A stretch of 58,945 nt of DNA from IMG/VR virus record IMGVR_UViG_3300027905_000003, positions 1 to 58,945 of that record; one strand, 5' to 3'. The position numbers were made by a program, and so were the translations under genes. This DNA comes from a virus. Taxonomy: Duplodnaviria; Caudoviricetes. Positions 3,322 through 58,655 of this stretch are shown piece after piece. Positions within the stretch are counted from its first letter, which is position 1, and each line of letters starts with the position of its first letter. The notes beneath the pieces are model-generated. The model was not told the origin of the DNA and did no database searches. It saw nothing but the letters and a program-made list of their open reading frames with translations.

Positions 3322-3682
3322 GCCCCCCGTTCAAGGTCGGAAGGACCCCCCAACCTTGCCAGGGGGTATCACCCCCCTACTGACCATCGACGAGGCCGCG
3401 ATCTATCTGCATATTTCCGTCAAGCAGATGCGGCAGCGATCGGATATTCCCCGGTTGAACCTGAGCGAGCCGGGCGTCCGGAAACCGCAGTGGCGCTATC
3501 GGCTCGCGGATTTAGAGCGATTCGCGGCCGACCGCGTAATAAACCCCCACCGACCAGGGGACCGAGAGCATGCGACAGCGCCAGTGGTTCTACCACGGCA
3601 GCAAGGCGTGGATGCGCGTCCTACGGAGCGACAAGCGCTCCGTGCGCGTCTCCTGCGAAACGTCAGATCCCCACACCGCTGA
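3308..3682 (+). CDS. Excisionase-like HTH protein
   Basis: LLTIDEAAIYLHIS...WRYRLADLERF resembles HTH_17; lies upstream of the integrase. Confidence 0.7.
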   Translation: MRTREPPVQGRKDPPTLPGGITPLLTIDEAAIYLHISVKQMRQRSDIPRLNLSEPGVRKPQWRYRLADLERFAADRVINPHRPGDREHATAPVVLPRQQGVDARPTERQALRARLLRNVRSPHR

Positions 3683-4682
3683 CGCCATTTGCGAGATGCG
3701 GAACGCGCTCCAGAACCGAGGCGAGTTCTCGCTGATCGATGGGCTGACCGACCGCACCATTAGTCCACTGGCCCTGCTGGCCGAGTATCGGCGGGACCCG
3801 ATGCTGGCCGAGGCCAAAAAGGCGCTTGATGACATCGACCTCGGGCCCTTAGTCGACGAATGGCGCGCATCGCTCTTGAACGATGGACTCGCGTCCGCCG
3901 ACCGCTACATCGAGCAAGTCCGCCGACTCATCGCGCACGGCGAGGCATTCCCGAGAAGCGCGTTCGCCAAGCAGACGCTCCGACGCCATCTCGACTCACT
4001 CGCGGTCACCGGGTCGACGCGGAACCGCCACCGCGCCGCGCTCCGGCAATTCGCCGCGTGGCTCGTGGACCGTGACGTGCTCGACACGAATCCCGTCAAC
4101 GATGTCCGCTCCTCGACCGAGAACGATCATCGCATGCGGTATCTGACGCCGGCCGAGGTCCAGATGCACAACGCGGCCTTGCCAGACCCATACCGGGCGC
4201 TTGAGGCGATTATGGCGGGAACCGGCATGGAGTGGGGGGCGATCGTCAAGGGTCCTCGCACGCCGGGTCTTCGCCGGCGCGACATCGACTTCAAGGCGCG
4301 GACCATCCAGGCCCACGGGGGCAAGAATCGCTGGCGGAACCGGAGGTGCCACGTGACCGAGCTCTGGACATGGCCGATCATCCTCGACTACGCGAAGCGG
4401 GTCCTGCCCAACCAACTCCTGTTCAGCGACGCCGTCGACTTCCATGATGAAGCGTTGGATCTGCATCACGCGGCGTCGGAAGCGGTACAGTTGGAGCATT
4501 CGACGCTGCACGACCACCGACACAGCTACGCCTACGCCACGCTCTCGCGGGGGATGCCGGCCATTCTGGTCGCGCGCCAGTTGGGCCATAAGGATGCGAG
4601 TATGGTGAACAAGAACTACGGGGACTTCATCCCGAGAGGGCACGAGTACGAACGGTACCTGAGCGCAGAGAGTGGAACGTGA
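3570..4682 (+). CDS. int: Tyrosine recombinase/integrase
   Basis: RYLTPAEV, box I-like GTGMEWG, GGKN, LHDHRHSYA (HxxR), QLGHKD and catalytic-type Tyr in KNYG. Confidence 0.9.
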   Translation: MRQRQWFYHGSKAWMRVLRSDKRSVRVSCETSDPHTADAICEMRNALQNRGEFSLIDGLTDRTISPLALLAEYRRDPMLAEAKKALDDIDLGPLVDEWRASLLNDGLASADRYIEQVRRLIAHGEAFPRSAFAKQTLRRHLDSLAVTGSTRNRHRAALRQFAAWLVDRDVLDTNPVNDVRSSTENDHRMRYLTPAEVQMHNAALPDPYRALEAIMAGTGMEWGAIVKGPRTPGLRRRDIDFKARTIQAHGGKNRWRNRRCHVTELWTWPIILDYAKRVLPNQLLFSDAVDFHDEALDLHHAASEAVQLEHSTLHDHRHSYAYATLSRGMPAILVARQLGHKDASMVNKNYGDFIPRGHEYERYLSAESGT

Positions 4683-4855
4683 AACAGCGACCTCTCCGGA
4701 GTACGTCGATTCAGGTTCGGCTCAATGAGCAGGAGAAGAAGCTTCTTGACGGCGTGGCCGATAGACAGGGACTTACGACATCGAGTTGGGCACGGTCAGT
4801 CTTGTTGCGAGAGGCACGCCGGGATGGCGAAACTGGGCAGACGCGACGGTCTTAA
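4679..4855 (+). CDS. 58-aa ribbon-helix-helix protein overlapping tRNA-Leu
   Basis: GTG overlaps the integrase stop. SIQVRLNEQEKKLLDGVADRQGLTTSSWARSVLL is similar to 12708-12875. Not in the supplied ORF track. Confidence 0.65.
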   Translation: MKQRPLRSTSIQVRLNEQEKKLLDGVADRQGLTTSSWARSVLLREARRDGETGQTRRS

Positions 4856-4902
4856 GAACCGTTGACCGGAAGGTCGTGCGGGTTCAAGTCCCGCTCCCGG
4901 CA
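4818..4902 (+). tRNA. trnL: tRNA-Leu(TAA)
   Basis: Acceptor GCCGGGA/TCCCGGC, anticodon arm ACGGT-CTTAAGA-ACCGT, long variable arm, T arm GCGGG-TTCAAGT-CCCGC, A73. Confidence 0.92.
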
Positions 4903-8883: not shown

Positions 8884-8936
8884 CACGCGACATGAAGGTC
8901 ACGCGACATGAAGGTCACGCGACATGAAGGTCACGC
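8884..8936 (+). repeat. 16-bp tandem repeat x3 (CACGCGACATGAAGGT) at a gene junction
   Basis: Units at 8884, 8900 and 8916 plus a partial fourth. Confidence 0.95.
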
Positions 8937-14227: not shown

Positions 14228-15358
14228 ATGAGACTCGTGCGCGGTCTCAAGCGGGCGTGTCTCGCATTCGTGGCCATCAATGGCATCTTCGCCGTGCACG
14301 AGACGGGGCATCTCCTCGCCGCGCGCTGGGCCCGCGTCACCGTGCGCGGCTTTTCCCTCGGGATCGGCCCCGCGATCCTGCATCGGACGATCGGCGGCAC
14401 GGCGTACGCCGTACGGGCGATCCCGTTGGGCGCCTATGTCGATCTCGCCACCGGCCCGGAGACCGTCATCATCGGGTCGCTCGATCGCGTATCGCCGTGG
14501 GCTCAGGCCGGCATCTTCGCGGCGGGGCCTCTCGTCAATATCGTGTTCGGGCTCGTCGTCATTCTGCTGCTGCACCCCCATCTCGATTCTCTCGATGCTA
14601 GCCCCGCGAGTAGCGCGCGCATTCTCGGGCCCATCGGCGTGCTCGGTGCCTTGGCGCGCAACATGGGTCGGGATTGGCGGTCGGCGACTGTGGCGGCGGG
14701 GGTCCTCTCCGTCGACATCGGTCTCAGCAATCTCATCCCGCTCCCGCCCTTGGATGGGGGGAAGATCCTGTGGCTCGGCGTGAAGCACGTCTTTCGCGTG
14801 GGGCCAAAAGTAGAGCTCTGGGTGATACTCATCACCACCGCCCTCTTGCTCCTTGTTGTCATTGAGACCGTGGTCGCCGATCTCCGTCGCCAACTGGCGC
14901 AACGCCGGGCGACTCCCACCCACGACTATTCGGTGACCCCGATGCTCGTCCCCTGTGAGTGCGGGCATTTTACCTACCGCGGGTTTCCCCGCTGTGAATA
15001 CTGCGGCGGCGTGAACTTCGCGTACCGCCCGCCACGCGAAGCGGAGAAGATCAACGAGGCGATCGTCCAGTACTTCGGACAGCCGATGAAAGTCCGCTGC
15101 GACCGCGAGTGCAACAAGGCGTGGGGGATGCACACGCGTCCGACCGAGAACGGCGCGTGGCTGTCGGACACAGAGCTAGGTGAGGCGCCAGCCGATCCCG
15201 GCACGTACGAGGGCGATTCCGGCAAGCCGCTCTCACCGGATGCCTTCCCCACCAAGTGGTGCGTGCGAGAGTGCGAGCGATGCGCCTCCTCCCATCTTGG
15301 CGAATCGGGATTGCCGCTTGCCCTGCCCGACCTTTCGCGCCGGCATCCCTGGCCCTGA
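14228..15358 (+). CDS. Site-2 (M50/RseP-like) intramembrane metalloprotease fused to a Cys-rich domain
   Basis: HETGH, GFSLGIGP, AIPLGAYV, AAGPLVN and NLIPLPPLDGG; C-terminal CECG, CEYC, CDREC and CVRECERC. Confidence 0.85.
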   Translation: MRLVRGLKRACLAFVAINGIFAVHETGHLLAARWARVTVRGFSLGIGPAILHRTIGGTAYAVRAIPLGAYVDLATGPETVIIGSLDRVSPWAQAGIFAAGPLVNIVFGLVVILLLHPHLDSLDASPASSARILGPIGVLGALARNMGRDWRSATVAAGVLSVDIGLSNLIPLPPLDGGKILWLGVKHVFRVGPKVELWVILITTALLLLVVIETVVADLRRQLAQRRATPTHDYSVTPMLVPCECGHFTYRGFPRCEYCGGVNFAYRPPREAEKINEAIVQYFGQPMKVRCDRECNKAWGMHTRPTENGAWLSDTELGEAPADPGTYEGDSGKPLSPDAFPTKWCVRECERCASSHLGESGLPLALPDLSRRHPWP

Positions 15359-19718: not shown

Positions 19719-20027
19719 TCCGATGCCCGATGAGCGTGAGATGGCCGAGACAACGACCCATGCCAACCGCCACTATACCGCCGCCGACGGGCCGTGGATC
19801 AGAGACCACGGTCGCCGCATGATCAAGCGACCGCACCCCGTCTACGCGCTCGGTCCGATGGAGCACGCGTTCACCGTCGACACGAACGAAGGCCGACTGG
19901 CTGGCAACGTCGGTGATTTCGTGGCCCACGACCCGATGTCGGGGCACGTCTGGCCGATCGCCGCCTCGTATGTCGAGCAGCATTATGATGAGGTATCCGA
20001 TGCCCGATGAGCGTGAGATGGCCGAGA
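19719..20027 (+). repeat. 32-bp direct repeat (19719-19750 and 19996-20027) bracketing ORF 19723-20010
   Basis: TCCGATGCCCGATGAGCGTGAGATGGCCGAGA occurs twice. The flanking ORFs share SDAR* ends and MPDEREMAE starts. Confidence 0.95.
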
Positions 20028-20413
20028 TCAACGAAGCCATCCAACCCCAAGAGCCACTCCTGCCCCGGGCTGAACGACGTCGGATCGCCCGAGAGCAACC
20101 CGTCTCCGATCGGTTCACTGGGGTCAAGCGGTGTGACCGATGTGGGTTTCAGGTGGAGTTAGAACGCGAGCCCATCCCTGAGCGATGCGATGGGTGTGGG
20201 TTCCGCTACGACACCACGGTCCAGGCGCCGGAAGACTACGACCAGGTGGGATCGGGGATCGAATCGAGCGCGTTGAAGCGCCGGCACGCCGCAGCCGTCG
20301 AAGGCGTGGGCGGCGCGATAGAGCTCTTAGCCGAAGGGGTCAACCGGTTGGCGGACGTCTTTGGGGATATCGGAGAAGCGGTCGCGCAACGGATAGGGAA
20401 GGCGGGACGGTAG
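20000..20413 (+). CDS. Zinc-ribbon hypothetical protein
   Basis: CDRCG...CDGCG. Confidence 0.6.
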   Translation: MPDEREMAEINEAIQPQEPLLPRAERRRIAREQPVSDRFTGVKRCDRCGFQVELEREPIPERCDGCGFRYDTTVQAPEDYDQVGSGIESSALKRRHAAAVEGVGGAIELLAEGVNRLADVFGDIGEAVAQRIGKAGR

Positions 20414-20415
20414 TT

Positions 20416-20990
20416 AGTGCACGCGGGGTCGCGGAGTGCGGGGAGTGCGTGGCCAGCGTGGGGTCGGGTTGTGAATCGCAGGCAAGTCGGGCGTAGGCGT
20501 GGCACGCGCTGTCATGGGGATCGGCGCGGCGGCACCTCGATGGGATGTTGATGCGTCGTGAGGCGAAGATCTGGCGAGGCGGCGCGGCGGGCCGGACAGC
20601 GTTGGGGTTGCGCAGCGTTCGTGGGGCGTGGGGTCGGGCAGCGTAGCGCTCGGGCAGCTCGGCGTAGCGCTTCGTCGGGGAGGGGGGGGCGGGCAAGGCA
20701 GGCTATGGGTTGTGTTGCACGCGGGAAGGGTCGCGTCGGGTCGGATAGGCGTGGCTGTCGCGGGGAAAGTCGGTGGGCGGATTCGCGTGGCCGTGCGCAG
20801 CGAGGGGCAGTTGATCGTGGGAGTGCGTTGCGACTGCGTGGTGCAGGCTTGGGTGGCGACGGGTTGGTGGGGCTGGCAGGGGACTGCGTGGTGGTGCGAA
20901 GTCGGGCGTTGACGAGCGATGGCAGGACGAGTCGGGGCGGTCGACGGATCGGGAAGCCGTGGGGCAACGCCGGCGATGGCGTCGCGTAGG
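20416..20990 (+). ncRNA. Upstream 5-nt-periodic G-rich array (G-S-G-N-N); candidate guide-like RNA
   Basis: 21 consecutive pentamers start with G at 20836-20940, and 19 of 22 at 20426-20535. Single-base register slips occur between blocks. No credible ORF. Confidence 0.7.
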
Positions 20991-21107
20991 ACGGATGATC
21001 CAAGATGCTATGGCCAAACACTCAACGAGTGAGAGATCCGTTCATGCGACAGTCAACGATGGACCCGCCCGCAACCAAGCGGCGCGCGAAGAAAGAACCC
21101 GGAGGCC

Positions 21108-21599
21108 GTGAAGGCCAAGGGCGAAGCGGCCAAGGCGAAGAAAGAAGATGACTTGGAGAGCTACATCTTCCGCACGCCGGAAGGCTACATCGGCGTCCCG
21201 TCGCTCTACATCTGCTCGGCGCTGGCCGATGCCGGTCGCTCGATGCAGGACCCGAGATCGCCCCGGAAATCCTTCCGCGATCTCTTGCGCGCGATCTTGA
21301 TCCCCCTCCCCACGCCGGACCACGTATGCCCGTTCTTGCCGGTGACGAAAGAGTGGGAATTTCTGCATAAAGGGCGCGTCGTCGTGCAACGGTCGGCGAT
21401 CACGCGGTCACGGCCGGCGTTCCGCGAGGGATGGCGGATCGCGTTCGATACGCTCATCAATGCCCCCGAGTACTTGCCGCCCGAGCGGTTGGCGGAACTC
21501 ATCAACACGTGCGGGAAACTCAACGGGTTCGCCGATCATCGGCCGAGTTACGGGCGATTCGTGCTGAGTGGATTCGAGACACGAAAATACGACAAGTAG
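21108..21599 (+). CDS. Stand-alone Cas7/RAMP-like protein, N-terminus possibly truncated
   Basis: YIFRTPEGYIGVP, QDPRSPRKS, RVVVQRSAITRSRPAF..GW and a C-terminal Gly-loop GKLNGFADHRPSYGRF. Confidence 0.7.
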   Translation: MKAKGEAAKAKKEDDLESYIFRTPEGYIGVPSLYICSALADAGRSMQDPRSPRKSFRDLLRAILIPLPTPDHVCPFLPVTKEWEFLHKGRVVVQRSAITRSRPAFREGWRIAFDTLINAPEYLPPERLAELINTCGKLNGFADHRPSYGRFVLSGFETRKYDK

Positions 21600-21925
21600 G
21601 CGGGACGGGACGGATGGCGTCGGCGGTCCGGGCCGCGCAGGGCGAAGCGGTTGCGCTGCCGCGCGCGGCGAAGCTGAGTGCCGCGGTGTGGAGAATGGCG
21701 ATGAGTTGCGAGGGATCAGCACAGCGTTGGCTGTCGACGGCGTGCGATGCGGGACGTGGCGACGGGCCGGGAATCGAGGGGCGTGGGGGCACGTGGCCTA
21801 GCCATGGAGTACGAGGCCAAGCAAAGTGCCGGTAAGGCGATCGGGGCGTCGGGCCGCGTGGGGATCGGTGGCGTGGCGGAGGGTTTGCGCAGTGGCGCGA
21901 AGCGATGCGAAGGGGGAGCGGCTAG
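21600..21925 (+). ncRNA. Downstream 5-nt-periodic G-rich array
   Basis: GGGAC GGGAC GGATG GCGTC begins right after the stop codon; 17 of 21 pentamers start with G at 21781-21885. Confidence 0.65.
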
Positions 21926-21959
21926 ACATCTTCTCGGGTTCGACGATAGGTTGGAAGAC

Positions 21960-22532
21960 ATGCCCTACGCCCTCCGGCTCGGATGCTCGACGCCTGGTCA
22001 AGTCCCCTTCCCGATCACCACCCGTCGGATGCACATCGGTTCGGGCGAGCGCGGAAATTGGACGTCGATCGGCGAAGCGCGTGCTGCCATTAACGGGCCG
22101 GAAGGCAGCAGTGATTTCCTCGTGCGCCAGACCGCCGTCGACGTCACGATGGGATGCGCACACGATGACCCGGCGTGTCTCGTGGGTGCGCTCAAGGGTT
22201 TCTTAGGCACCATCCCCTTCATTCCGGATGACCTCGGCAATCAGGAGCTGTTCAAGCCGCGGCTCTCGCTCTTGATCCATCAGGAGGGGCGCCATCGCAT
22301 CTCGTGCTACAGCATCGCGACCTTGGGCGCGGCACTCGCCAAGGCTATCGCACTTCAGCCTGCCTTTATGGTTCTCGCCTTTGAAAACGGGCCGCCGATC
22401 TTCACGCACATCTACGCGATCGCACGGGATGTGGAGAGCGATGAGGGATTCTACGACCTCGATTCGACCAACCGATTTCAGCGGGGATCACGAGCGGCGC
22501 CGATTGCCCGGTGGCGGATGATCCCGATTTAG
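21960..22532 (+). CDS. Transglutaminase-like Cys-His-Asp protein, candidate virion maturation protease
   Basis: ISCYSIATL...FTHIYA...YDLDST has transglutaminase-like triad spacing; the protein starts MPYALRLG. Confidence 0.65.
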   Translation: MPYALRLGCSTPGQVPFPITTRRMHIGSGERGNWTSIGEARAAINGPEGSSDFLVRQTAVDVTMGCAHDDPACLVGALKGFLGTIPFIPDDLGNQELFKPRLSLLIHQEGRHRISCYSIATLGAALAKAIALQPAFMVLAFENGPPIFTHIYAIARDVESDEGFYDLDSTNRFQRGSRAAPIARWRMIPI

Positions 22533-22540
22533 GAGGGAGT

Positions 22541-22981
22541 ATGCAGGAAGAAAAAGACATGACCCTCGACGAAGCGGAAGCCCGCCACGAGGAGGTCATG
22601 TTGGAGATGGCGGGCATCAAGGCGCAGATCGCCGCCGCGAAGGCGCACGTGCACACCACGGGGGAGTACGCCGACGCCGGGTGGTTCGCCAAGGCGTCAA
22701 GCGCGCTCCGGTACAAGCAAGCCGAGCATCAACGTCTTCAACTGCTCTGCGGCCGGTTGCGGCGGGAGGAGAAACGGAATGGCGTCCGGCCGAATCTTGA
22801 GGCAAGGCGCGAACGCGCCATCAAGGGCAAATTTCACGAACTGGTGCGAGACGAACTGGGCGACGAACTGTACGAGTGGATGTGGGAGGAAGCGCGGCGA
22901 CTCGTGGCGGCATCGCCACCGGACGACGACAACGATGGCTACGAGTTCGCGATCGAGAACCGAATTGCCGGTGGCGGATGA
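22541..22981 (+). CDS. Hypothetical coiled-coil protein
   Basis: Strong RBS AGGAGGGAG before ATG 22541. Confidence 0.65.
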   Translation: MQEEKDMTLDEAEARHEEVMLEMAGIKAQIAAAKAHVHTTGEYADAGWFAKASSALRYKQAEHQRLQLLCGRLRREEKRNGVRPNLEARRERAIKGKFHELVRDELGDELYEWMWEEARRLVAASPPDDDNDGYEFAIENRIAGGG

Positions 22982-35459: not shown

Positions 35460-36776
35460 ATGGCGACCTCCATCATCGACACGATCGTCCCGACGCCGGC
35501 GACGCCGCCCCCTGTGATCTCGGTGTTCGGTCGGGTGGGCGCCGTGGTCGCCCAGACGGGGGATTACACGGTGGCCCAGGTGACCGGGGCCGCCCCGTTA
35601 GCCTCCCCCGCCTTGACGGGAGTCCCCACGGCTCCCACCGCCGCGCCTGGGACCAACACGACACAGCTCGCGACGACCGCCTTCGTGCAATCCGCCTCGC
35701 CGGTGACGTCGGTGTTTGGCCGGACCGGGGCCGTGGTCGCCCAGACCGGCGACTACACCGTCGCGCAGGTGACCGGCGCGGCACCCTTGGCCTCTCCTGC
35801 TTTGACTGGGGTGCCCACGGCCCCGACGGCCGCTGCGGGCACCGATACGACGCAGCTCGCCACGACCGCCTTTGTCCAATCCGCCTCTCCCTCGCAGACC
35901 ACTTTCACCGCGGCCGGCGCCCAGACGTACACGATTCCCTTGGGCGCGACGTTCATCGACTTCTTCATCTACGGGAGTGCCGGCGGCGGCGGGGGGGGAC
36001 GGGAAGGACCCGCAGCAGAAGCCTCAGTCGGCGGCGGTGGTGGTGGCGGTGGCGGCTACCTCTTCCTCCGCTACCCAGTCTCGGTCTTCACCGCGAACCT
36101 CGACACGCAGCTCACGATCACGGTGGGCGCCGGCGGGACGCCGGGTGCGGCGGCCACGGCCAATTCGACGAACGGCGGGAACGGCGGCACGGGCGGCACG
36201 ACCACGATCGTCGGCGCGACGTCGGCCGTGGTCTATGCCAGCATCCCTGGTGCAGGCGGGGGCGGGGGCGGACAGGCGGCCGCTGGTGGGGCGGGTGGGA
36301 CAGCCCAGTCCACGTCGCAAGGCTTCGGCGCGCATTCTCCAGAGATCGGTGAGGTTGGCGGATCGGCGTCGGCGACGGGCGGGGTTGGAGGGAACGGGAC
36401 CCAGCAGAACTCCTTGGTCGCGGCCATTTCGGATGCCGGGTCCTCGGGCTCGGCCGGCGGCGGGATCAGTACCGGTAACACGGCGGCCGCTGGGGGGATT
36501 GCGGGCGCGGCCGCGGGCTACACCGGGACCTTCAGCCAAGCGGCCGGCGGCACCGTCGGGAACAATGGCAACAACGGCTACACTCCACCGGCGGGCGTCC
36601 CCTACTCGGGCGGCGGCGGCTCGGGCGGTGGCGGCAACACAGCGGGTGTGGGCGGCACGGGCGGGCTGGGCGGACCCGGCGCGGGCGGTGGCGGCGGCGG
36701 CGCCTCGCGGAACGGCGCCAACTCGGGCGCTGGCGGGGCGGGCGGGAATGCGGGAGTATACGTGTATGCCCACTGA
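35460..36776 (+). CDS. Fibre/spike protein with 2 x 63-aa repeat and a Gly-rich domain
   Basis: SVFGR.GAVVAQTGDYT...APLASPALTGVPTAPTAA..T.TTQLATTAFV repeats at a 189-nt period (35520, 35709); poly-Gly C-terminal half. Confidence 0.75.
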   Translation: MATSIIDTIVPTPATPPPVISVFGRVGAVVAQTGDYTVAQVTGAAPLASPALTGVPTAPTAAPGTNTTQLATTAFVQSASPVTSVFGRTGAVVAQTGDYTVAQVTGAAPLASPALTGVPTAPTAAAGTDTTQLATTAFVQSASPSQTTFTAAGAQTYTIPLGATFIDFFIYGSAGGGGGGREGPAAEASVGGGGGGGGGYLFLRYPVSVFTANLDTQLTITVGAGGTPGAAATANSTNGGNGGTGGTTTIVGATSAVVYASIPGAGGGGGGQAAAGGAGGTAQSTSQGFGAHSPEIGEVGGSASATGGVGGNGTQQNSLVAAISDAGSSGSAGGGISTGNTAAAGGIAGAAAGYTGTFSQAAGGTVGNNGNNGYTPPAGVPYSGGGGSGGGGNTAGVGGTGGLGGPGAGGGGGGASRNGANSGAGGAGGNAGVYVYAH

Positions 36777-38279: not shown

Positions 38280-38481
38280 CCCTCATGCGAACATGCTTCC
38301 GCCATCCTGATCGCGAGACGTCGGTCGTCTCGATGTTCGTCCATCGCACCTTCACCGTCGGCGCGGGCGAGGAGAAATCCGTGATGGCGGTCTGTGGGGC
38401 CGAGGCGATGTGTGAGGAGTGCTTTCTCGGCACCGGGGCGGGGAGCGCTGCGGATTGGACTCGGGTCAGCGGGGCCTGTCG

Positions 38482-39141
38482 ATGACGACGGTCACCGGCA
38501 TCGACGTCGCGGGCGATGTCCGCCCCTACTTGCCGCAGTTCAAAGCGGCGGGGATCTCATTCGTGTTCCGCTACTACGCGCTGCAAGAAGACACGCGGAT
38601 TCCAGGGAAGATCATCTCGGCGGATGAAGCGCAAGCGATCAGCGCGGCGGGATTCAAACTGGGCGCGGTGTTCGAGAACGGACAGCCGACGACTCCGGAG
38701 TACTTCACGAGCGACCGGGGCCGAACCGACGCGGCCATCGCGTTGCAGTGCGCGGCGCGCATCGCGCAGCCCGCGAATACGCCGATCTTTTTCACGGTCG
38801 ACGGCGACCTGCCGTACGGAGACATCAGCACCGCGGTCTTCAACTATTTCGTCGGCATCCGGAACGCGATCTCACCCGCGTATCCGGTCGGGGTCTACGG
38901 CTCAGGATTAGTCTGCGAGAAGATGACGGACTGGGCGCTCGCCAAGTACTCCTGGCTCGCCGGCGCGAAAGACTGGGCGGGATACAGTGACTTCCTACCT
39001 CGCGCGACGATCGTCCAGGGATCACTGCCGGCCGCACTCCACGGGATTCCCGACTTCCCGTATTCGGACAGTGATGGGGATACGACATCGGCTATTGACT
39101 ACGGGGGATTTCAGGTGCCGGTCGACGTGAGTGCCGCATGA
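38482..39141 (+). CDS. DUF1906 (GH25-like) glycoside hydrolase, probable endolysin
   Basis: GIDV, FVFRYY, GAVFE, PIFFTVDGD and VGVYGSGLVC. Confidence 0.85.
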   Translation: MTTVTGIDVAGDVRPYLPQFKAAGISFVFRYYALQEDTRIPGKIISADEAQAISAAGFKLGAVFENGQPTTPEYFTSDRGRTDAAIALQCAARIAQPANTPIFFTVDGDLPYGDISTAVFNYFVGIRNAISPAYPVGVYGSGLVCEKMTDWALAKYSWLAGAKDWAGYSDFLPRATIVQGSLPAALHGIPDFPYSDSDGDTTSAIDYGGFQVPVDVSAA

Positions 39142-41402: not shown

Positions 41403-41474
41403 GCGAGATTAGCTCAACGGGTAGAGCGCTCCTTCGCCATGGGAGAGCCACAGGTTCAAGTCCTGTATCTCGCT
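41403..41474 (+). tRNA. trnG: tRNA-Gly(GCC)
   Basis: GCGAGAT/ATCTCGC acceptor, U73, CTCCT-TCGCCAT-GGGAG (C at position 33), ACAGG-TTCAAGT-CCTGT. Confidence 0.85.
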
Positions 41475-44621: not shown

Positions 44622-44939
44622 ATGTCTATCCGATTTCAACTCTCCGACGTCGACCCCGAAGACGACGACCTCCTCGACGAAGCTGATGAGGAAGACGACG
44701 GATCACGCTGCGAGCACGGGAAGCTCCTGATCGAACTCTGCATCGACTGCGACGCCGAGGACGAGGCGTTGGATGAGGAGGAGGAGGACGACGACGACGA
44801 CGATCTCGAATACGACGCCGACGATCTGGACGAGGAGGACGACTTCGAGGATGACGACGACGACCTCGACGATGACGATGACGATCTAGACGACGAGGAT
44901 GACGAAGAAGAAGCGCCGGACGATGCCATCCAAGCCTGA
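44622..44939 (+). CDS. Extremely acidic Asp/Glu-rich protein with CEH...CIDC
   Basis: Over half the residues are D/E; next ORF overlaps. Confidence 0.7.
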   Translation: MSIRFQLSDVDPEDDDLLDEADEEDDGSRCEHGKLLIELCIDCDAEDEALDEEEEDDDDDDLEYDADDLDEEDDFEDDDDDLDDDDDDLDDEDDEEEAPDDAIQA

Positions 44940-47904: not shown

Positions 47905-49083
47905 GTGGCGATGAGCTTCTACTCCGCCCTCCCCCTCTTAACCACCAACGCCCTCACGACCGATGAGTGGCGGGATCTCGTGAGCGCCTGGCGCGACACC
48001 CCCTACGTCCCGAACTACGCCTACCGGCTCTCCCACGTCTACCATCACGCCGGCCGGAAGGACCTGGCCCAGGAGCTCGTGCAAATCGCCTTCCGCTTGG
48101 ACCACGACCGCCCGGACTCGGTCTGGCTCCGGGCCCAGGAGCGCATCCGCCTAGGGGATTTTGGAGGGTGGAGGGAATATCAGACCCGCTGGTCCGACCC
48201 GGCATTCCTGCAAGGCCACGATTACCAGCACTGGTTCGGGAACCGGGTGATGTGGGACGGGGTCGAGGACTTGTCGGGCAAGAGCTTGCTGGTGGTGCAA
48301 GAGCAAGGGATGGGCGATTGCATCCAGATGCTCCGCTATCTCGCCGTCGTGTCCCGAGTGGTGGGCAGAGTGTACGCCTTCGTGCATCCCAGCATTCGCC
48401 GCGTGGTTGAAGCGTCGTACGGCGGCGTGCTCGAACGATGGGACGCGACTCGGGTCCGAGGGCCAGAGGATCTGCCGCAGACCGATCGCCACATCGGCAT
48501 CATGAGCTTGCCGGGAATCTTTGGCCCGCTCAAGGATGGAGATCGGGCGATGCCCTGGCCGCTCAAAGAGCCGGGGAAGGACCTGGGGGGAACGGGACTC
48601 GTCTGGCGGGGGAACCCGAAGAACGCGAACGATGCCAACCGGTCGATGCCCCGAGAGGCATACGAACTGCTCGTTGGGTCGCTGCAAGGCGTCGCGTACT
48701 GGCCGCTCTACTCGTTCCAGTTTGGCGAGGGGGCCGATTGGTGGTACCGCACCCGACCCGACAACCCCAAGCTCCGCGATGTCCTCTGCCATCCGCTCCC
48801 GCCGAGCACAGGCGACTGGTTCGACACGGCCAAGTCCCTCCGACGGATCGACCGCCTGGTGACGATCGACTCCGCGGTGATGCACTTGGCGGGCTCGCTC
48901 GGGGTCGAGACGTGGTGCCTTTTGTGTTACCCGGACGACTTCAGGTTTCCGATCGCTGGTGATTACGATCAGTGGTACGATTCGGTCCGGCTCATCCGAC
49001 AGGAGAAACCGGGGGACTGGGACTCGTGCATTCGGCAATTACTGGCGAGATTGAAGGGAGAGGCCGCAGGGGTTAGTGTCTAG
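47905..49083 (+). CDS. GT9-like glycosyltransferase
   Basis: EQGMGDCIQMLRY, GLVWRGNP..NDANRSM, LVTIDSAVMHLAGSLG, VRLIRQ..PGDW. Confidence 0.85.
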   Translation: MAMSFYSALPLLTTNALTTDEWRDLVSAWRDTPYVPNYAYRLSHVYHHAGRKDLAQELVQIAFRLDHDRPDSVWLRAQERIRLGDFGGWREYQTRWSDPAFLQGHDYQHWFGNRVMWDGVEDLSGKSLLVVQEQGMGDCIQMLRYLAVVSRVVGRVYAFVHPSIRRVVEASYGGVLERWDATRVRGPEDLPQTDRHIGIMSLPGIFGPLKDGDRAMPWPLKEPGKDLGGTGLVWRGNPKNANDANRSMPREAYELLVGSLQGVAYWPLYSFQFGEGADWWYRTRPDNPKLRDVLCHPLPPSTGDWFDTAKSLRRIDRLVTIDSAVMHLAGSLGVETWCLLCYPDDFRFPIAGDYDQWYDSVRLIRQEKPGDWDSCIRQLLARLKGEAAGVSV

Positions 49084-49139
49084 CGGCAGCACGGCGGGTT
49101 GTGGCTCCGTCAGGATGGGTTCGAGTCCCATACCCCTGA
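49066..49139 (+). tRNA. trnH: tRNA-His(GTG), overlapping the GT gene stop codon
   Basis: G-1, CAGGGGT/ACCCCTG, GCGGG-TTGTGGC-TCCGT and ATGGG-TTCGAGT-CCCAT. Confidence 0.85.
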
Positions 49140-53103: not shown

Positions 53104-53341
53104 TCCGTCTTCGAGTGATCGCCAATGTGCAGTCCATGAATCCTGGCGCAGGCGGCACGAAAGAGGTCGACTTCGGTGTCATCGTCGCCCCGTCAGAACT
53201 TGCGGACCACGAGCAGTCCTTGCGCAACTGGGGTGCGAACTACCTCCGCTGGTGCACGGACCACAACAAGAACGGCATCATGTCAGTGTACGATCGAGAA
53301 TTCGCGATCGTCTGGCTCAATCGAGTGGAGCGAGAGATGTG

Positions 53342-53851
53342 ATGGCGTTCGTCCCCGAAGTCTTCCGCCCCGATGGCTACATCGCCAAAGAGTCGTTGCG
53401 GGATGGCGTCTACTACTTCGGCCGCTGCCGGAACTCACAGGTCGCTCGCTGGGATGCCACGCGACAAGTCTTTCGCTACTGGCGAGAGAAGTTTACCCAT
53501 CGCTACGTTGAAGCCTTACGGTGTCGGGAAGACGAAGGCCCGACGATCGATGTCTTCGACGCTCGATGCGCGCTCAGCGAGTTGGAGCGTGAAGATGTGC
53601 CCGACGAGGGACCGCCCATAGACCGCGCTCGACTCCTCCACCAATTCGGTAGCCGCGTGCTGCAACGGAGAGAAGTGCTCAATCTCTCGCAGCAGGAACT
53701 GGCGAAGCGAGCCGGCATGAGCAACGCGGCGTTGTGCAAGATCGAGCGCGGCTACGGATTGCCGTCGTTGGAAGTGGCGGTGCGCCTGGCGGAGGCGCTG
53801 TCGACTAGAGTGGATGCGTTGGTGGGGCCGACGACGGATCCGGTGCTCTGA
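53342..53851 (+). CDS. Hypothetical domain fused to XRE HTH
   Basis: LSQQELAKRAGMSNAALCKIERG...PSLEVAVRLAEAL. Confidence 0.75.
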   Translation: MAFVPEVFRPDGYIAKESLRDGVYYFGRCRNSQVARWDATRQVFRYWREKFTHRYVEALRCREDEGPTIDVFDARCALSELEREDVPDEGPPIDRARLLHQFGSRVLQRREVLNLSQQELAKRAGMSNAALCKIERGYGLPSLEVAVRLAEALSTRVDALVGPTTDPVL

Positions 53852-54918: not shown

Positions 54919-55069
54919 GAGAGGGGATCGATGGCGTAGGTGATGGTTACTTCGATTCTGGATCGAGAGGTCGTGGGTTCGAGTCCCACCTGGCTGGGTA
55001 ACACCAGTCGGTAGCTCAGTTGGTAGAGCGCTAAAATCTCCATTGCCGCTTGTACCTCGGTCTCTTCTC
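54919..55069 (+). ncRNA. yrlA: Y RNA 4 (canonical YrlA-like)
   Basis: TGGCGTAGG...GGTTACTTC, GTGGG-TTCGAGT-CCCAC, a closed acceptor-like stem, D arm TAGCTCAGTTGGTAGAGC, then CCGCTTGTACC. Confidence 0.85.
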
Positions 55070-55109
55070 TTCGCGCACAGCACCGGGCCAATCTCGAAAG
55101 GAGATCAAC

Positions 55110-56501
55110 ATGGCCCGCACGAACACTCCGATCGCTCACACCGCCCAGACGCACGAGGGCGGCGCCGCCTGGCCGCACGCGACCGCCGAGCAACAACTCC
55201 GGCGCTCCGTCCTCTCGTGCCTCCTCTGGGAGGACGAGTTCTACGAGGACGGCGAGTCCATCGCCAAGCGGATCGCCGATGCGGCGAATGCGGTCCCCGT
55301 CGAGATGCTGGCATCGCTCGCCGTCGAGGCGCGCTCCTCGTTCAACCTGCGCCACGTCCCGATGCTCTTGCTCTCGATCTTGGCCAAGCGCGGGAGCGGG
55401 AACCGGATCGTGCGGGATACGATCGCCGCCACCGTGCAGCGCGCCGACGAGCTGGCGGAGTTCCTCGCGGTCTACGCCAAGACGAATGGCGTCACGCCCG
55501 ACAAGATCAAGAAGACGCTCTCGGCTCAGGTCAAGAAAGGGCTCGCGCGGGCGTTCGCCAAGTTCGATGCCTACGCCTTGGCCAAGTACGATCGCGAAGG
55601 CGCCATCAAACTGCGCGACGTGCTGTTCATGGTGCACGCAAAGCCTAAGGACGAGGAGCAGAATGCGCTCTGGGCCAAGCTGATCGATGGCACGATCGAG
55701 AGTCCCGACACGTGGGAGGTCTCGCTCTCGGGTGGCAAGGACAAGCGCGAGACATTCGAGCGGTTGCTGCGCGAAGAGAAGCTCGGCTATCTGGCGCTCC
55801 TCCGGAACCTGCGGAACATGCTGGAGGCCAAGGTCGATCGGGACCTCATCGTGTCGGCGCTTGCCGCCCGCAAGGGCGCGCGCCGCGTGTTGCCGTTCCG
55901 TTATGTCGCGGCCGCGCGCGCGGTGCCGTCCTTGGAACCCGCGATCGACGCTGCGCTCGTCGCGTCAATCGCCGAGATGCCGGCGTGGCCGGGCGAGACC
56001 GTCGTGTTGGTCGACGTGTCGGGCTCAATGGAGGCCAAGCTGTCGGGCAAGTCGGATCTCTCGCGCATGGATGCGGCCGCTGCGTTGGCGAGTATCATCC
56101 CGGGGCGCGTGCAGATGTTCAGCTTCTCCGACTGGTTGGTCGAGGTCCCGCCCCGGAAGGGTATGGCCGGAGTCGATGCGATTGTGAAGAGTCAGTCCCA
56201 CTCGGGCACTGCGCTATTCGAGGCAGTCCAGCGGGCCGTGAATGCCCAAGGCCACTATGATCGGCTCATCGTCATCACGGACGAGCAGGCGAACCAGGGG
56301 TCAGGCTGGGATGTGCACGGTCGTCTGCAAACAGGAGTGAGTCGGCTGCCGGCGCCGAAGGGGCGAGGCTATATGATCAACGTTGCGAGTTTTCAGAACG
56401 GCGTCGGCTACGGGCCGTGGGTCCACATCGACGGATTCTCGGAGCAAGTTCTTCGGTTCATCCATGAACACGAGGCGTCAGTCTCGCCGTCCCGTGAATA
56501 G
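55110..56501 (+). CDS. rsr: Ro60/Rsr TROVE-vWA RNA-binding protein
   Basis: THEGG, LLWEDEFYE, FDAYALAKY, TWEV.LS, LALLRNLRN, VLPFRY, VDVSGSM and ITDEQ; RBS AAGGAG. Confidence 0.95.
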   Translation: MARTNTPIAHTAQTHEGGAAWPHATAEQQLRRSVLSCLLWEDEFYEDGESIAKRIADAANAVPVEMLASLAVEARSSFNLRHVPMLLLSILAKRGSGNRIVRDTIAATVQRADELAEFLAVYAKTNGVTPDKIKKTLSAQVKKGLARAFAKFDAYALAKYDREGAIKLRDVLFMVHAKPKDEEQNALWAKLIDGTIESPDTWEVSLSGGKDKRETFERLLREEKLGYLALLRNLRNMLEAKVDRDLIVSALAARKGARRVLPFRYVAAARAVPSLEPAIDAALVASIAEMPAWPGETVVLVDVSGSMEAKLSGKSDLSRMDAAAALASIIPGRVQMFSFSDWLVEVPPRKGMAGVDAIVKSQSHSGTALFEAVQRAVNAQGHYDRLIVITDEQANQGSGWDVHGRLQTGVSRLPAPKGRGYMINVASFQNGVGYGPWVHIDGFSEQVLRFIHEHEASVSPSRE

Positions 56502-57652: not shown

Positions 57653-57933
57653 GGCGGAGATACTACACGTCCGTCTCTGGTGTCACCAGATGCGTTCCCC
57701 AGATGCACTACGCCCGCCAGCCGGTTTGAAAACCAAAGGTCCGCGCTTCAGGAGTCCCGGACCGGCTGACGGGCGAGAGCATGGAGTAAGCATCCACCGA
57801 CCAAGATGGAGCGAGAACGCACAATCTATCCACAGAACCCCCGGCGTCAATGTGGGCAAAACCATTGCCTTTTGTCACACCCGTTTTCTGCTGTTGCATC
57901 GGCTACGGAACAGCCTAGATTGCGCGCCCCAAT

Positions 57934-57990
57934 CCTGTGCCATAAACAGGTGTGCCATAATGCTTGTTTGGTGTTGAATTCTGGCACAGG
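57934..57990. promoter_or_regulatory. res-like site upstream of the serine recombinase
   Basis: TGTGCCATAA at 57936 and 57951; CCTGTGCCA (57934) is inverted as TGGCACAGG (57982). Confidence 0.6.
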
Positions 57991-58037
57991 AACGAAGTCG
58001 CGTCATCGGGATGACTTGCGAGGGAGGGGCCGGCACC

Positions 58038-58655
58038 ATGCTTGTCGGGTACGCGCGAGTCTCCACGGCGGATCAGGACGACGAGATCCAGACCCGAGCG
58101 CTCAAGGAGGCGGGCTGCGAGCGGATCTTCACCGAGACGATTTCCGGTGCCGCGCGCGAGCTGCCCGAGCTCCAACGCACGGTCGCGTTCCTCCGGACGA
58201 ACGACTTCCTCTGCGTGTGGAAGATCGACCGGCTGGGCCGAACCTTCCGCGGGATCGTGAACATCGTTGAGGAGCTGCGCGACAAAGGCGTGCACATTCG
58301 GTCGCTCACCCAGGGGATCGATACGTCGACCGAAGGGGGCCGCATCCTCTTTGCCGTGTTTGGCATGGCCGCCGAGATCGAGCGCACGAACATTCGGGAG
58401 CGGGCGATGGCCGGCCAGGCGAAGGTGCGCGCCCTGGGCATTAAAGTCGGCCGGAAGTTGCGTTTGACGCCCGAACAGGAGCGCCAAGTCGCCGCCCTCC
58501 ATGCCGCCGACATCCCGCCGAAAGAGATCTGCGGACAGTTCAACATCGGTCGGCGCACGATGTGGCGGACGATCGTGCGGGTGGCGGATCGGGATCGTGA
58601 AGCCCGACGGCGCGCGGTGCCCGAGCATCGCCAAGAGGAGAGGGCCCAAGCATGA
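58038..58655 (+). CDS. Serine resolvase/invertase
   Basis: MLVGYARVSTADQ, ISGA..ELPEL, KIDRLGR, AEIERTNIRER and a C-terminal HTH. Confidence 0.93.
   Translation: MLVGYARVSTADQDDEIQTRALKEAGCERIFTETISGAARELPELQRTVAFLRTNDFLCVWKIDRLGRTFRGIVNIVEELRDKGVHIRSLTQGIDTSTEGGRILFAVFGMAAEIERTNIRERAMAGQAKVRALGIKVGRKLRLTPEQERQVAALHAADIPPKEICGQFNIGRRTMWRTIVRVADRDREARRRAVPEHRQEERAQA

Follow-up and report, generated by a model that had tools for sequence, protein, structure and literature searches.

A VIPR locus with a truncated vipr gene between G-S-G-N-N repeat arrays in a temperate peat phage

Introduction

Does a phage that carries the guide sequences of an RNA-guided silencing system together with a shortened gene for the protein that binds them still possess that system? 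The question is raised by a locus in the IMG/VR virus record IMGVR_UViG_3300027905_000003, the whole stretch of which (58,945 nucleotides, nt) was analyzed here and is called the window. The record is complete with direct terminal repeats and represents a 58.9-kb temperate peat phage. At 21108..21599 on the plus strand, an open reading frame (ORF) of 163 amino acids (aa) lies between two non-coding arrays, at 20416..21000 and 21600..21925. A first-pass annotation, made from the letters of the DNA, had taken the gene and arrays as a candidate RNA-guided system and had pointed to their likeness to the Viral Interference Programmable Repeat (VIPR).

As described, VIPR combines a small Cas7-like protein, Vipr, with guide RNAs (vrRNAs) that proceed in 5-nt steps (10.64898/2026.04.26.720920), and its exemplars are the type II system of Escherichia phage SUSP1 and a Pseudomonas fulva prophage (10.64898/2026.04.26.720920, 10.64898/2026.04.26.720927). 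One Vipr protomer is reported per unit, sequestering a triplet and presenting the two bases NN (10.64898/2026.04.26.720920, 10.64898/2026.04.26.720927), and the pairing skips one target base, every third, in double-stranded DNA (dsDNA) and silences transcription of rival elements (10.64898/2026.04.26.720920). In the same description, vrRNAs have 9-16 units, and the methods and legends name the alternative repeats NNNGG, YNNNG and NNNNG as well as 'staggered' arrays (10.64898/2026.04.26.720920). VIPR was described only in 2026, and the variation of its repeat code and its natural loss or subversion are barely charted. The locus allows one to ask whether, in phages other than those of Enterobacteriaceae, guides persist once their effector is gone. 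Here we report that the vipr gene of the window has been truncated by an out-of-frame deletion, that its arrays carry a periodic code with a non-canonical triplet, and that in sibling contigs the gene and the inner parts of the arrays are missing. The locus is probably, though far from certainly, inactive in cis.

Results and discussion

Family and fold of the vipr product

The 163-aa ORF product had no match in Pfam, and its match in PHROGs was the unnamed family phrog_4652 (E 6e-11). Among 488 candidates from a large protein collection, 403 were relatives at E <= 1e-3. A profile of 50 homologues, including the window protein, matched the Vipr protein of SUSP1 (36pp_D) among PDB sequences at E 3.1e-15; the alignment runs nearly end to end (profile 34-209 of 214, chain 4-190 of 202), and 36pp_D was the only solved structure matched by sequence. 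Judged from this alignment, the window gene is a member of the published VIPR (Vipr) family, and the identification proposed in the first-pass annotation, with VIPR now in print (10.64898/2026.04.26.720920), was right.

The fold was modeled on the full-length homologue P0002, which is 78% identical to the window protein and whose model has a predicted local distance difference test (pLDDT) score of 88.4. In Foldseek, the P0002 model gave 123 PDB matches at E <= 1e-3 (best E 1.5e-6), and the matches listed were all Csm3, Cas7, type VII Cas7 or Cas7-11 complexes, at a sequence similarity of 9-16% in the alignments. Full-length family members are thereby predicted to have a Cas7/Csm3-like RAMP fold, with an RRM core, a thumb and a loop rich in glycine (G-loop). 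The two protein motifs that had been singled out in the first-pass annotation are the thumb arginine and glycine-loop motifs of the family, and both are present in the 163-aa remnant as ITRSRPAF and ADHRPSYGRF, respectively. The claim of a RAMP/Cas7 fold is borne out for full-length P0002 in the Foldseek comparison; the model of the remnant had no match at E <= 1e-3 (best E 0.25).

An out-of-frame deletion in vipr

The truncated vipr ORF (21108..21599, plus strand, GTG start, 163 aa) was delimited by homologues, profile, alignments, models and Foldseek. Among the 120 homologues listed, 119 were 185-281 aa long and only the window protein had 163 aa. When five full-length relatives were compared with the window by tblastn, homology started only at 21096 or 21102, and neither a convincing N-terminus of these relatives nor a full-length vipr was found elsewhere in the complete genome by this search. 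Because the record is complete with terminal repeats, the missing part of the gene is not elsewhere in the phage.

BLASTP and the ORF list place the former 5' end of vipr at 21044..21151 on the plus strand, where an ATG at 21044 in frame 2 opens 35 codons that end at a stop at 21149-21151. The peptide from 21044-21100 is identical at 14 of 19 positions to residues 1-19 of the homologue P0122 (BLASTP, E 5e-8), a protein of 233 aa from the same 90% cluster, which is 95% identical over 150 aa to window residues 14-163. Homology to P0122 breaks off at 21100 in frame 2; from 21102, in frame 0, it sets in again near residue 66. The deletion scar was placed at 21100..21102 (plus strand) by tblastn, BLASTP and codon reading. 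About 46 codons have been lost out of frame, and a second gap just downstream of the scar comprises 3 codons, the Gly-Ser-Lys of the family motif AAKGSKAKK. Considering that P0122 is only ~5% diverged, the deletion in the window gene is recent. It is also no assembly artifact, since the truncated form is found unchanged in several assemblies, with 8 contigs for P0001 (the window protein) in addition to P0123, and since another study yielded a run in which a contig of 1736 nt agrees with 19900-21617 without a single difference.

Two other origins of the N-terminus were considered and rejected. N-terminal tblastn matches at 57872-58018 (E 0.16-6.7), which would have made vipr a split gene, look non-coding and show only an 'APIL.H' resemblance. 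A frame-1 ORF from an ATG at 21010 had no alignment to the homologue P0004, and frame 2 from the ATG at 21044 was preferred.

The lost segment contains strand β1 (E49-57 in the P0002 model) and a nearly invariant His that the profile alignment places on H17 of SUSP1 Vipr. In the cryo-electron microscopy work, H17 and D177 jointly recognize G1 of the GGY triplet (10.64898/2026.04.26.720927). β1 is a central strand of the RRM sheet and is missing from the remnant. The RNA-contact residues that are kept include thumb R102 (SUSP1 R138) and G-loop D143 and R145 (SUSP1 D177 and R179). The AlphaFold2 (AF2) model of the remnant has a pLDDT of 87.5, and its C-terminal strand is not formed. While a complete minimal RAMP protein consists of an RRM core, a G-loop and a thumb, the remnant falls short of this set by the deletion of β1 and the His.

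Period-5 order of the flanking arrays

Both vrRNA-type arrays lie on the plus strand. The upstream array (20416..21000, ~585 nt, G 0.50 / C 0.21), with units G-S-G-N-N, was defined by autocorrelation, genome-wide rank, a hidden Markov model and block parse, and the downstream array (21600..21925, ~326 nt, G 0.49 / C 0.23) has the same G-S-G-N-N profile. The flanks thus hold 49-50% G and 21-23% C, against ~31% of each in the neighboring genes, and the highest GC skew of the window, 0.30, is at 20001-21000. Compared with 300 dinucleotide-preserving shuffles, the G autocorrelation at lags 5/10/15 gave z = 3.8/2.5/3.4 for 20416-21000 and z = 3.7/2.4/1.7 for 21600-21925. No lag-5 peak appeared in ORF 21108-21599 or in two coding controls, and neither array had a period-3 or lag-3 signal. 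This comparison with shuffles, which the first-pass annotation had proposed, reveals lag-5 peaks beyond G-richness in both flanks.

Genome-wide, we used a slip-tolerant statistic (lags 5, 10 and 15 minus neighboring lags) in 1173 segments of 300 nt over the 58,945 nt. Among the top 20 segments, 13 start in 20351-20701 or 21451-21651, and the maximum was 0.264, which is ~5.5 standard deviations (genome standard deviation 0.048). The Fourier power over 100 nt was not exceptional in this region and did not discriminate, because register slips break the phase. A 5-state cyclic model with slips gave 0.127 nats/nt for the arrays and 0.010 +/- 0.006 for shuffles, none of 60 shuffles reaching the arrays' score; the z values were 16.5 for the upstream array, 10.7 for the downstream array and 0.7 for the coding control 22000-22900. 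The G-skewed non-coding flanks with 5-nt periodicity described in the first reading of the DNA were confirmed.

The block parse yielded eight slip-free blocks of 9-25 units, which flank the vipr ORF on both sides. The upstream blocks are at 20422-20531 (21 units), 20649-20719 (13), 20757-20834 (15) and 20835-20963 (25), with shorter blocks in addition, and the downstream blocks have 9, 13, 12 and 20 units. Together, the retained arrays amount to ~910 nt. They are long and run on almost without a break, neighboring blocks being offset by register slips of a single base, and have no spacer elements. The division into blocks by such slips had been noticed before, and the earlier counts were reproduced by the parse: 21 G-initial pentamers from 20836 (then TCGAC), 19 of 22 in 20426-20535 and 17 of 21 in 21781-21885.

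Neither the locus region nor the whole window contained a CRISPR-like repeat-spacer array in Tandem Repeats Finder, and none of the 78 ORFs submitted (of 103 called) matched a cas model of PADLOC at E <= 1e-5, in agreement with the first reading. No Rfam family, hammerhead included, matched in 20200-22100 at E <= 1. Between the blocks, no repeated non-periodic element such as an invariant 3' tail, a pseudoknot or a processing motif was recognized; such tails have been reported solely from the SUSP1 clade, so that the lack of a 3' tail does not exclude other VIPR types. No promoter or terminator consensus, which is uninformative for this host, was found at the locus.

The fixed triplet and related loci

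To compare the arrays with those of other vipr genes, we collected 184 related loci (80 from 389 IMG/VR relatives, 20 metagenome, 8 further viral and 76 from genomes), and excluded 30 that were shorter than 3 kb, duplicate or without a tblastn match, which left 154 non-redundant loci. The best plus-strand period-5 G window lay within 500 nt of vipr in 144 of these 154, where 34.2 were expected by position; judged by the strongest window, homologues are thus flanked by period-5 arrays, as a check suggested in the first-pass annotation had anticipated. Clean GGYNN arrays stand on both sides of the gene in L002 and L010, and one short array on each side in L055. The layout of the window (~585-nt array, gene, ~326-nt array) matches that of L002.

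When each array was trained separately, the two agreed in their unit profile, with G at 0.84-0.89 in the first position, C at 0.43-0.57 and G at 0.32-0.38 in the second, G at 0.62-0.65 in the third, and N in the last two. In the pooled profile, the first G is at 0.89, the second position is C/G at 0.48/0.36, and the third is G in 64%; in the cyclic model, the three fixed positions are skewed and the two variable positions are unskewed. The triplets of the 168 in-phase units include GCG (52), GGG (30), GGC (16) and GTG (12), so that GSG accounts for 82 units (49%) and GGY for 18 (11%), and the arrays are well described by the 'divergent GSG-NN variant' that had been proposed for them. In the relative L002, on the other hand, 143 of 154 in-phase units (93%) are GGY at 0.433 nats/nt, and the information content of the window arrays is ~3.4-fold below this value.

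Array profiles were then compared for 161 distinct sequences; of the 168 considered, 7 lacked measurable arrays. The dominant group of 150 loci, which have Phe after the G-loop Asp, showed mean values of G1 0.75, G2 0.64 and Y 0.79. Rotated for the best GGY fit, the window arrays gave G1 0.23, G2 0.85, Y 0.68 and a next position of G 0.67, which is YNNNG-like. The G-S-G and YNNNG-like registers both fit the arrays, and the protein's own register may be either. No G-S-G fixed triplet was seen in any of the 160 related loci whose arrays could be measured. The relative L057 has an intact Vipr and very regular G-Y-Y-N-N arrays (GTT, GCC, GCT and GTC) at 3800-3970 and 4640-4870, and its G-loop has Asp-Ser where others have Asp-Phe. 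Therefore, triplets change within this family, and this third code beside an intact protein suggests that the protein-RNA recognition code can be re-written.

In the sub-branch of the window protein (P0001, P0002, P0003 and P0122), the G-loop reads LNGF-x-D or close to it, while most relatives have L-V/I-G-L/V-x-D; we note this as an observation only, and the differences concern positions that in SUSP1 give the triplet pocket its shape. In 150 of the 161 sequences, Phe follows the G-loop Asp, and the other residues are too few to compare with the array profile. From the sequences, G-S-G would appear to be the code native to the P0122-type sub-branch, as opposed to one that arose by decay, because a full-length gene with 95% identity is found elsewhere, which makes the deletion recent, and because neutral drift could hardly convert GGY to G-S-G in both arrays alike.

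Loss of the locus in sibling phages

Contigs from three sequencing runs of three studies (one peat, two lake water) carry a joint from 20461 to 21815. The skipped segment, 20462..21814 (1353 nt), comprises the inner parts of both arrays and the entire vipr remnant. The flank sides at the joint are 28 nt in X1, 63 nt in X6 and 184 nt in X9, the record of X9 being otherwise identical, and a 2-nt overlap at the joint is assignable to either side. What the locus-deleted form retains of the arrays is 46 nt upstream and 111 nt downstream, and the latter piece equals ~14 units. Since X6 also has a 217-nt contig from within the skipped segment, both forms occur in X6. We infer that the locus is on its way to loss, siblings being already without the gene and inner arrays. 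A 95%-identical intact gene elsewhere, a truncation in place and a deletion of the full locus provide a dated snapshot of such a loss.

Comparison with known systems

The window locus resembles the VIPR of SUSP1 in its homologous protein, in the Cas7-like fold of the full-length homologue and in being phage-borne. In both, vipr lies between long same-strand non-coding 5-nt arrays with three constrained and two free positions, and the window locus is without a CRISPR array or cas gene. Tandem 5-nt repeats (GGY/NN or related) of at least 4 units beside vipr, by which VIPR is recognized, are present here with a non-canonical consensus. The locus differs from VIPR in its triplet, which is G-S-G and not GGY, in having no recognized vap, and in a vipr without β1 and the His equivalent to SUSP1 H17. 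Unlike those of the SUSP1 type II system, its arrays show neither an invariant 3' tail nor a pseudoknot that could be recognized. The host probably stands far from those of the exemplars, as Planctomycetota metagenome-assembled genomes (MAGs) make up, by their titles, 31 of the 76 genome loci of the family.

Compared by their text descriptions, alternative-repeat or staggered VIPR arrays share with the window one strong G anchor per unit, in that the unit can be read as x-G-Y-N-N with G1 lost, and the slips without spacers. However, the second position of the window arrays is C/G and not a clean pyrimidine, and the next position is G in 64%. The mechanism that the first-pass annotation had put forward, in which the triplet is held and the NN positions spell a gapped target, equals the one published for VIPR, and hence is not new here. 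The backbone subunits of CRISPR class 1 systems (Cas7, Csm3 and Cmr4) share the RRM core, thumb and glycine-rich loop, while the window is without an array and further cas genes, and the step is 5 nt in place of 6 nt.

In a third report, VIPR-null phages of the SUSP1 family have lost vipr-vap1 by a shared deletion and kept 1-2 solo vrRNAs (10.64898/2026.10.15.759431). The window is similar in that the protein gene was lost by deletion and guide sequence was kept. Here, however, the loss has two steps, an internal vipr deletion in the window genome and the 1353-nt deletion in sibling contigs that leaves the array ends. The phage lineage is unrelated and the habitat differs (peat and lake-water runs). 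Furthermore, the window vipr is truncated in place and not absent, its arrays of ~910 nt compare with 1-2 guides, and no predicted targets were found for them in this genome and 1.26 Mb of related loci.

Function of the locus

In an intact VIPR, each Vipr protomer binds one 5-nt unit, holding the fixed triplet and exposing the two variable bases, and the exposed bases pair with dsDNA, every third target base being skipped, and silence the transcription of rival mobile elements. In the window, the out-of-frame deletion of ~46 codons has removed β1 and the G1-reading His, and the frame opened by the native ATG ends after 35 codons. With β1 and the His lost, the locus would be unable to assemble its own filament and would therefore be inactive in cis. 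We thus favor, as somewhat the more probable state of affairs, a VIPR locus with a broken protein gene and an incomplete RRM core that is a recent casualty. The guides are then best read either as relics or as guides that work only with a Vipr from another element, as published for VIPR-null phages. The RNA-guided system of the first-pass annotation accordingly stands as a VIPR locus but probably not as an active stand-alone system, given the remnant gene and the siblings that delete the locus.

Several observations weigh against a dead locus. All mappable SUSP1 RNA-contact residues other than the His are retained, and neither AF2 nor Foldseek is a measure of stability. The remnant is still open, with a typical coding GC content of 0.80 at third codon positions (GC3) and a GGAGG 2 nt 5' of the GTG, and a shortened protein could therefore be made. 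The persistence of the truncated form in several assemblies is unlike that of a fast-decaying pseudogene. The arrays are not obviously eroded: by the 300-nt statistic, 56% of the 154 loci outscore them, the median being 0.28. Moreover, the loci of P0002-P0005 and P0122 were not found in metagenome contigs (best 53%), viral contigs or genome contigs (P0004 query), and there was no RNA run among the sequencing runs listed for the locus.

Among the alternatives, the arrays might be kept as trans-acting guides ('guns for hire') for the Vipr of a putative co-infecting or resident relative, for example of the P0122 type, and be directed at decoys or rivals. For this there is direct published precedent, in which solo vrRNAs of satellites and 346 VIPR-null phages use or redirect the Vipr of another element (10.64898/2026.10.15.759431). 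The arrays are also strongly periodic despite the broken gene, an intact Vipr, 95% identical, occurs in nature, and the deleted siblings keep array pieces of 46 and 111 nt, the ~14 units of the latter being within the 9-16 units given for vrRNAs. However, a target search gave no support to such a role. The eight blocks were searched in two registers (NN at positions 4-5 and NNN at 3-5) with 0-3 skipped bases against shuffled-order controls, and no targets were found in this genome and 1.26 Mb of related loci, the best scores being those of the controls; the regularly gapped reading of the variable bases that the first-pass annotation had advised thus yielded nothing above background. The missing RNA run and promoter or terminator consensus also count against trans-acting guides, and we regard them as a rather unlikely explanation, if one to be taken seriously. 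A bolder version is that the G-S-G and NN arrays are live guides of a re-coded sub-branch, the phage having shed its effector and kept ~900 nt of guides to commandeer or misdirect a rival P0122-type Vipr, or that the β1-less protein caps or poisons a rival filament. We hold this version to be speculative and rather unlikely. If true, a phage of an environmental lineage remote from the enterobacterial examples would be in a natural 'freeloader' or anti-VIPR state, and its triplet code would be one not described so far; if the arrays are mere relics, the locus is a usual case of decay within a family already known.

The β1-less 163-aa protein from the GTG at 21108 could alternatively be the effector of a re-coded, functional and divergent VIPR. 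Its open ORF, coding-like GC3 and conserved thumb and G-loop residues agree with this, as do the best GGY rotation, in which G1 is at 23% and G2 at 85%, matching the loss of the G1 reader, and the G-Y-Y-N-N arrays of L057, whose intact protein indicates that triplets vary in the family. However, β1 is central to the RRM sheet, and in the remnant's model both the C-terminal strand and all significant RAMP matches are gone. The native start codon, with the N-terminal codons behind it, persists in a frame that is dead, which marks an accident and not a designed short form, and because the full-length relative is 95% identical, the code cannot have co-evolved with the recent deletion. Considering further that one of 120 homologues listed is this short and that siblings drop the locus, a working short Vipr seems quite unlikely. 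Finally, the flanks could be mere G-rich non-coding DNA, prone to G-quadruplexes or recombination, beside a RAMP remnant. No repeated tail or processing element, Rfam match, promoter or terminator consensus was found at the locus, and its units are degenerate in comparison with those of L002 (0.127 and 0.433 nats/nt, respectively), which would fit such DNA. The period-5 order, on the other hand, goes beyond composition (0 of 60 shuffles) and is unique in the genome, both arrays have a common profile in which the fixed positions are skewed and the variable ones are not, and the layout of gene plus arrays recurs in 144 of 154 related loci. This last explanation is close to refuted.

Phage context and neighboring genes

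Based on Pfam and PHROGs, the window encodes an integrase (3570-4682), a tail-fibre protein (35460-36776), an endolysin-like hydrolase (38419-39141), a helix-turn-helix repressor (53252-53851) and a resolvase (58011-58655). Around vipr, none of 11 ORFs (19913-20413, 21960-22532 and nine others) had a relative in the 184 loci, and no vap was recognized among them. The neighboring ORFs of vipr had no Pfam or PHROG family, and the Atlas results for them, a zinc ribbon with every feature score below 0.8, are leads only. The gene that follows the downstream array (21960-22532, plus strand), likewise without a Pfam or PHROG match, has language-model neighbors that include transglutaminase-like clusters (0.90-0.93), which is also a lead only.

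Among the related loci, 40 of 177 distinct ones have a RusA-like resolvase ORF behind vipr and the downstream array, at a median distance of 81 nt (for example, L055 4720-5000). A RecA-like ATPase lies upstream of vipr in 42 of the 177, and that of the representative L134 (4594-5178) has an intein-like insert. Vipr often stands within the replication-recombination module of Planctomycetota-type prophages.

Elsewhere in the window, the plus-strand gene at 55050-56501 encodes a Ro60/TROVE and vWA RNA-binding protein (phrog_850, E 3e-65; Pfam TROVE, E 1e-16). At Rfam gathering thresholds, neither a Y RNA nor another partner RNA for this protein was found in the window, where the only matches were three plus-strand tRNA genes at 4818-4902 (59 bits), 41403-41474 (55) and 49069-49136 (29.5), the first directly after the integrase gene. 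At 8884-8936, a perfect 16-nt direct repeat (3.3 copies, Tandem Repeats Finder score 106) between small ORFs is possibly a set of operators or iterons. The plus-strand gene at 14228-15358 belongs to Peptidase_M50, the site-2 protease family (Pfam E 1e-34). The plus-strand ORF at 44622-44939 has a GC content of 0.19 at codon position 2 and overlaps a GACGAC / 21-nt tandem repeat at 44787-44905, and a highly acidic, Asp-rich protein is therefore implied.

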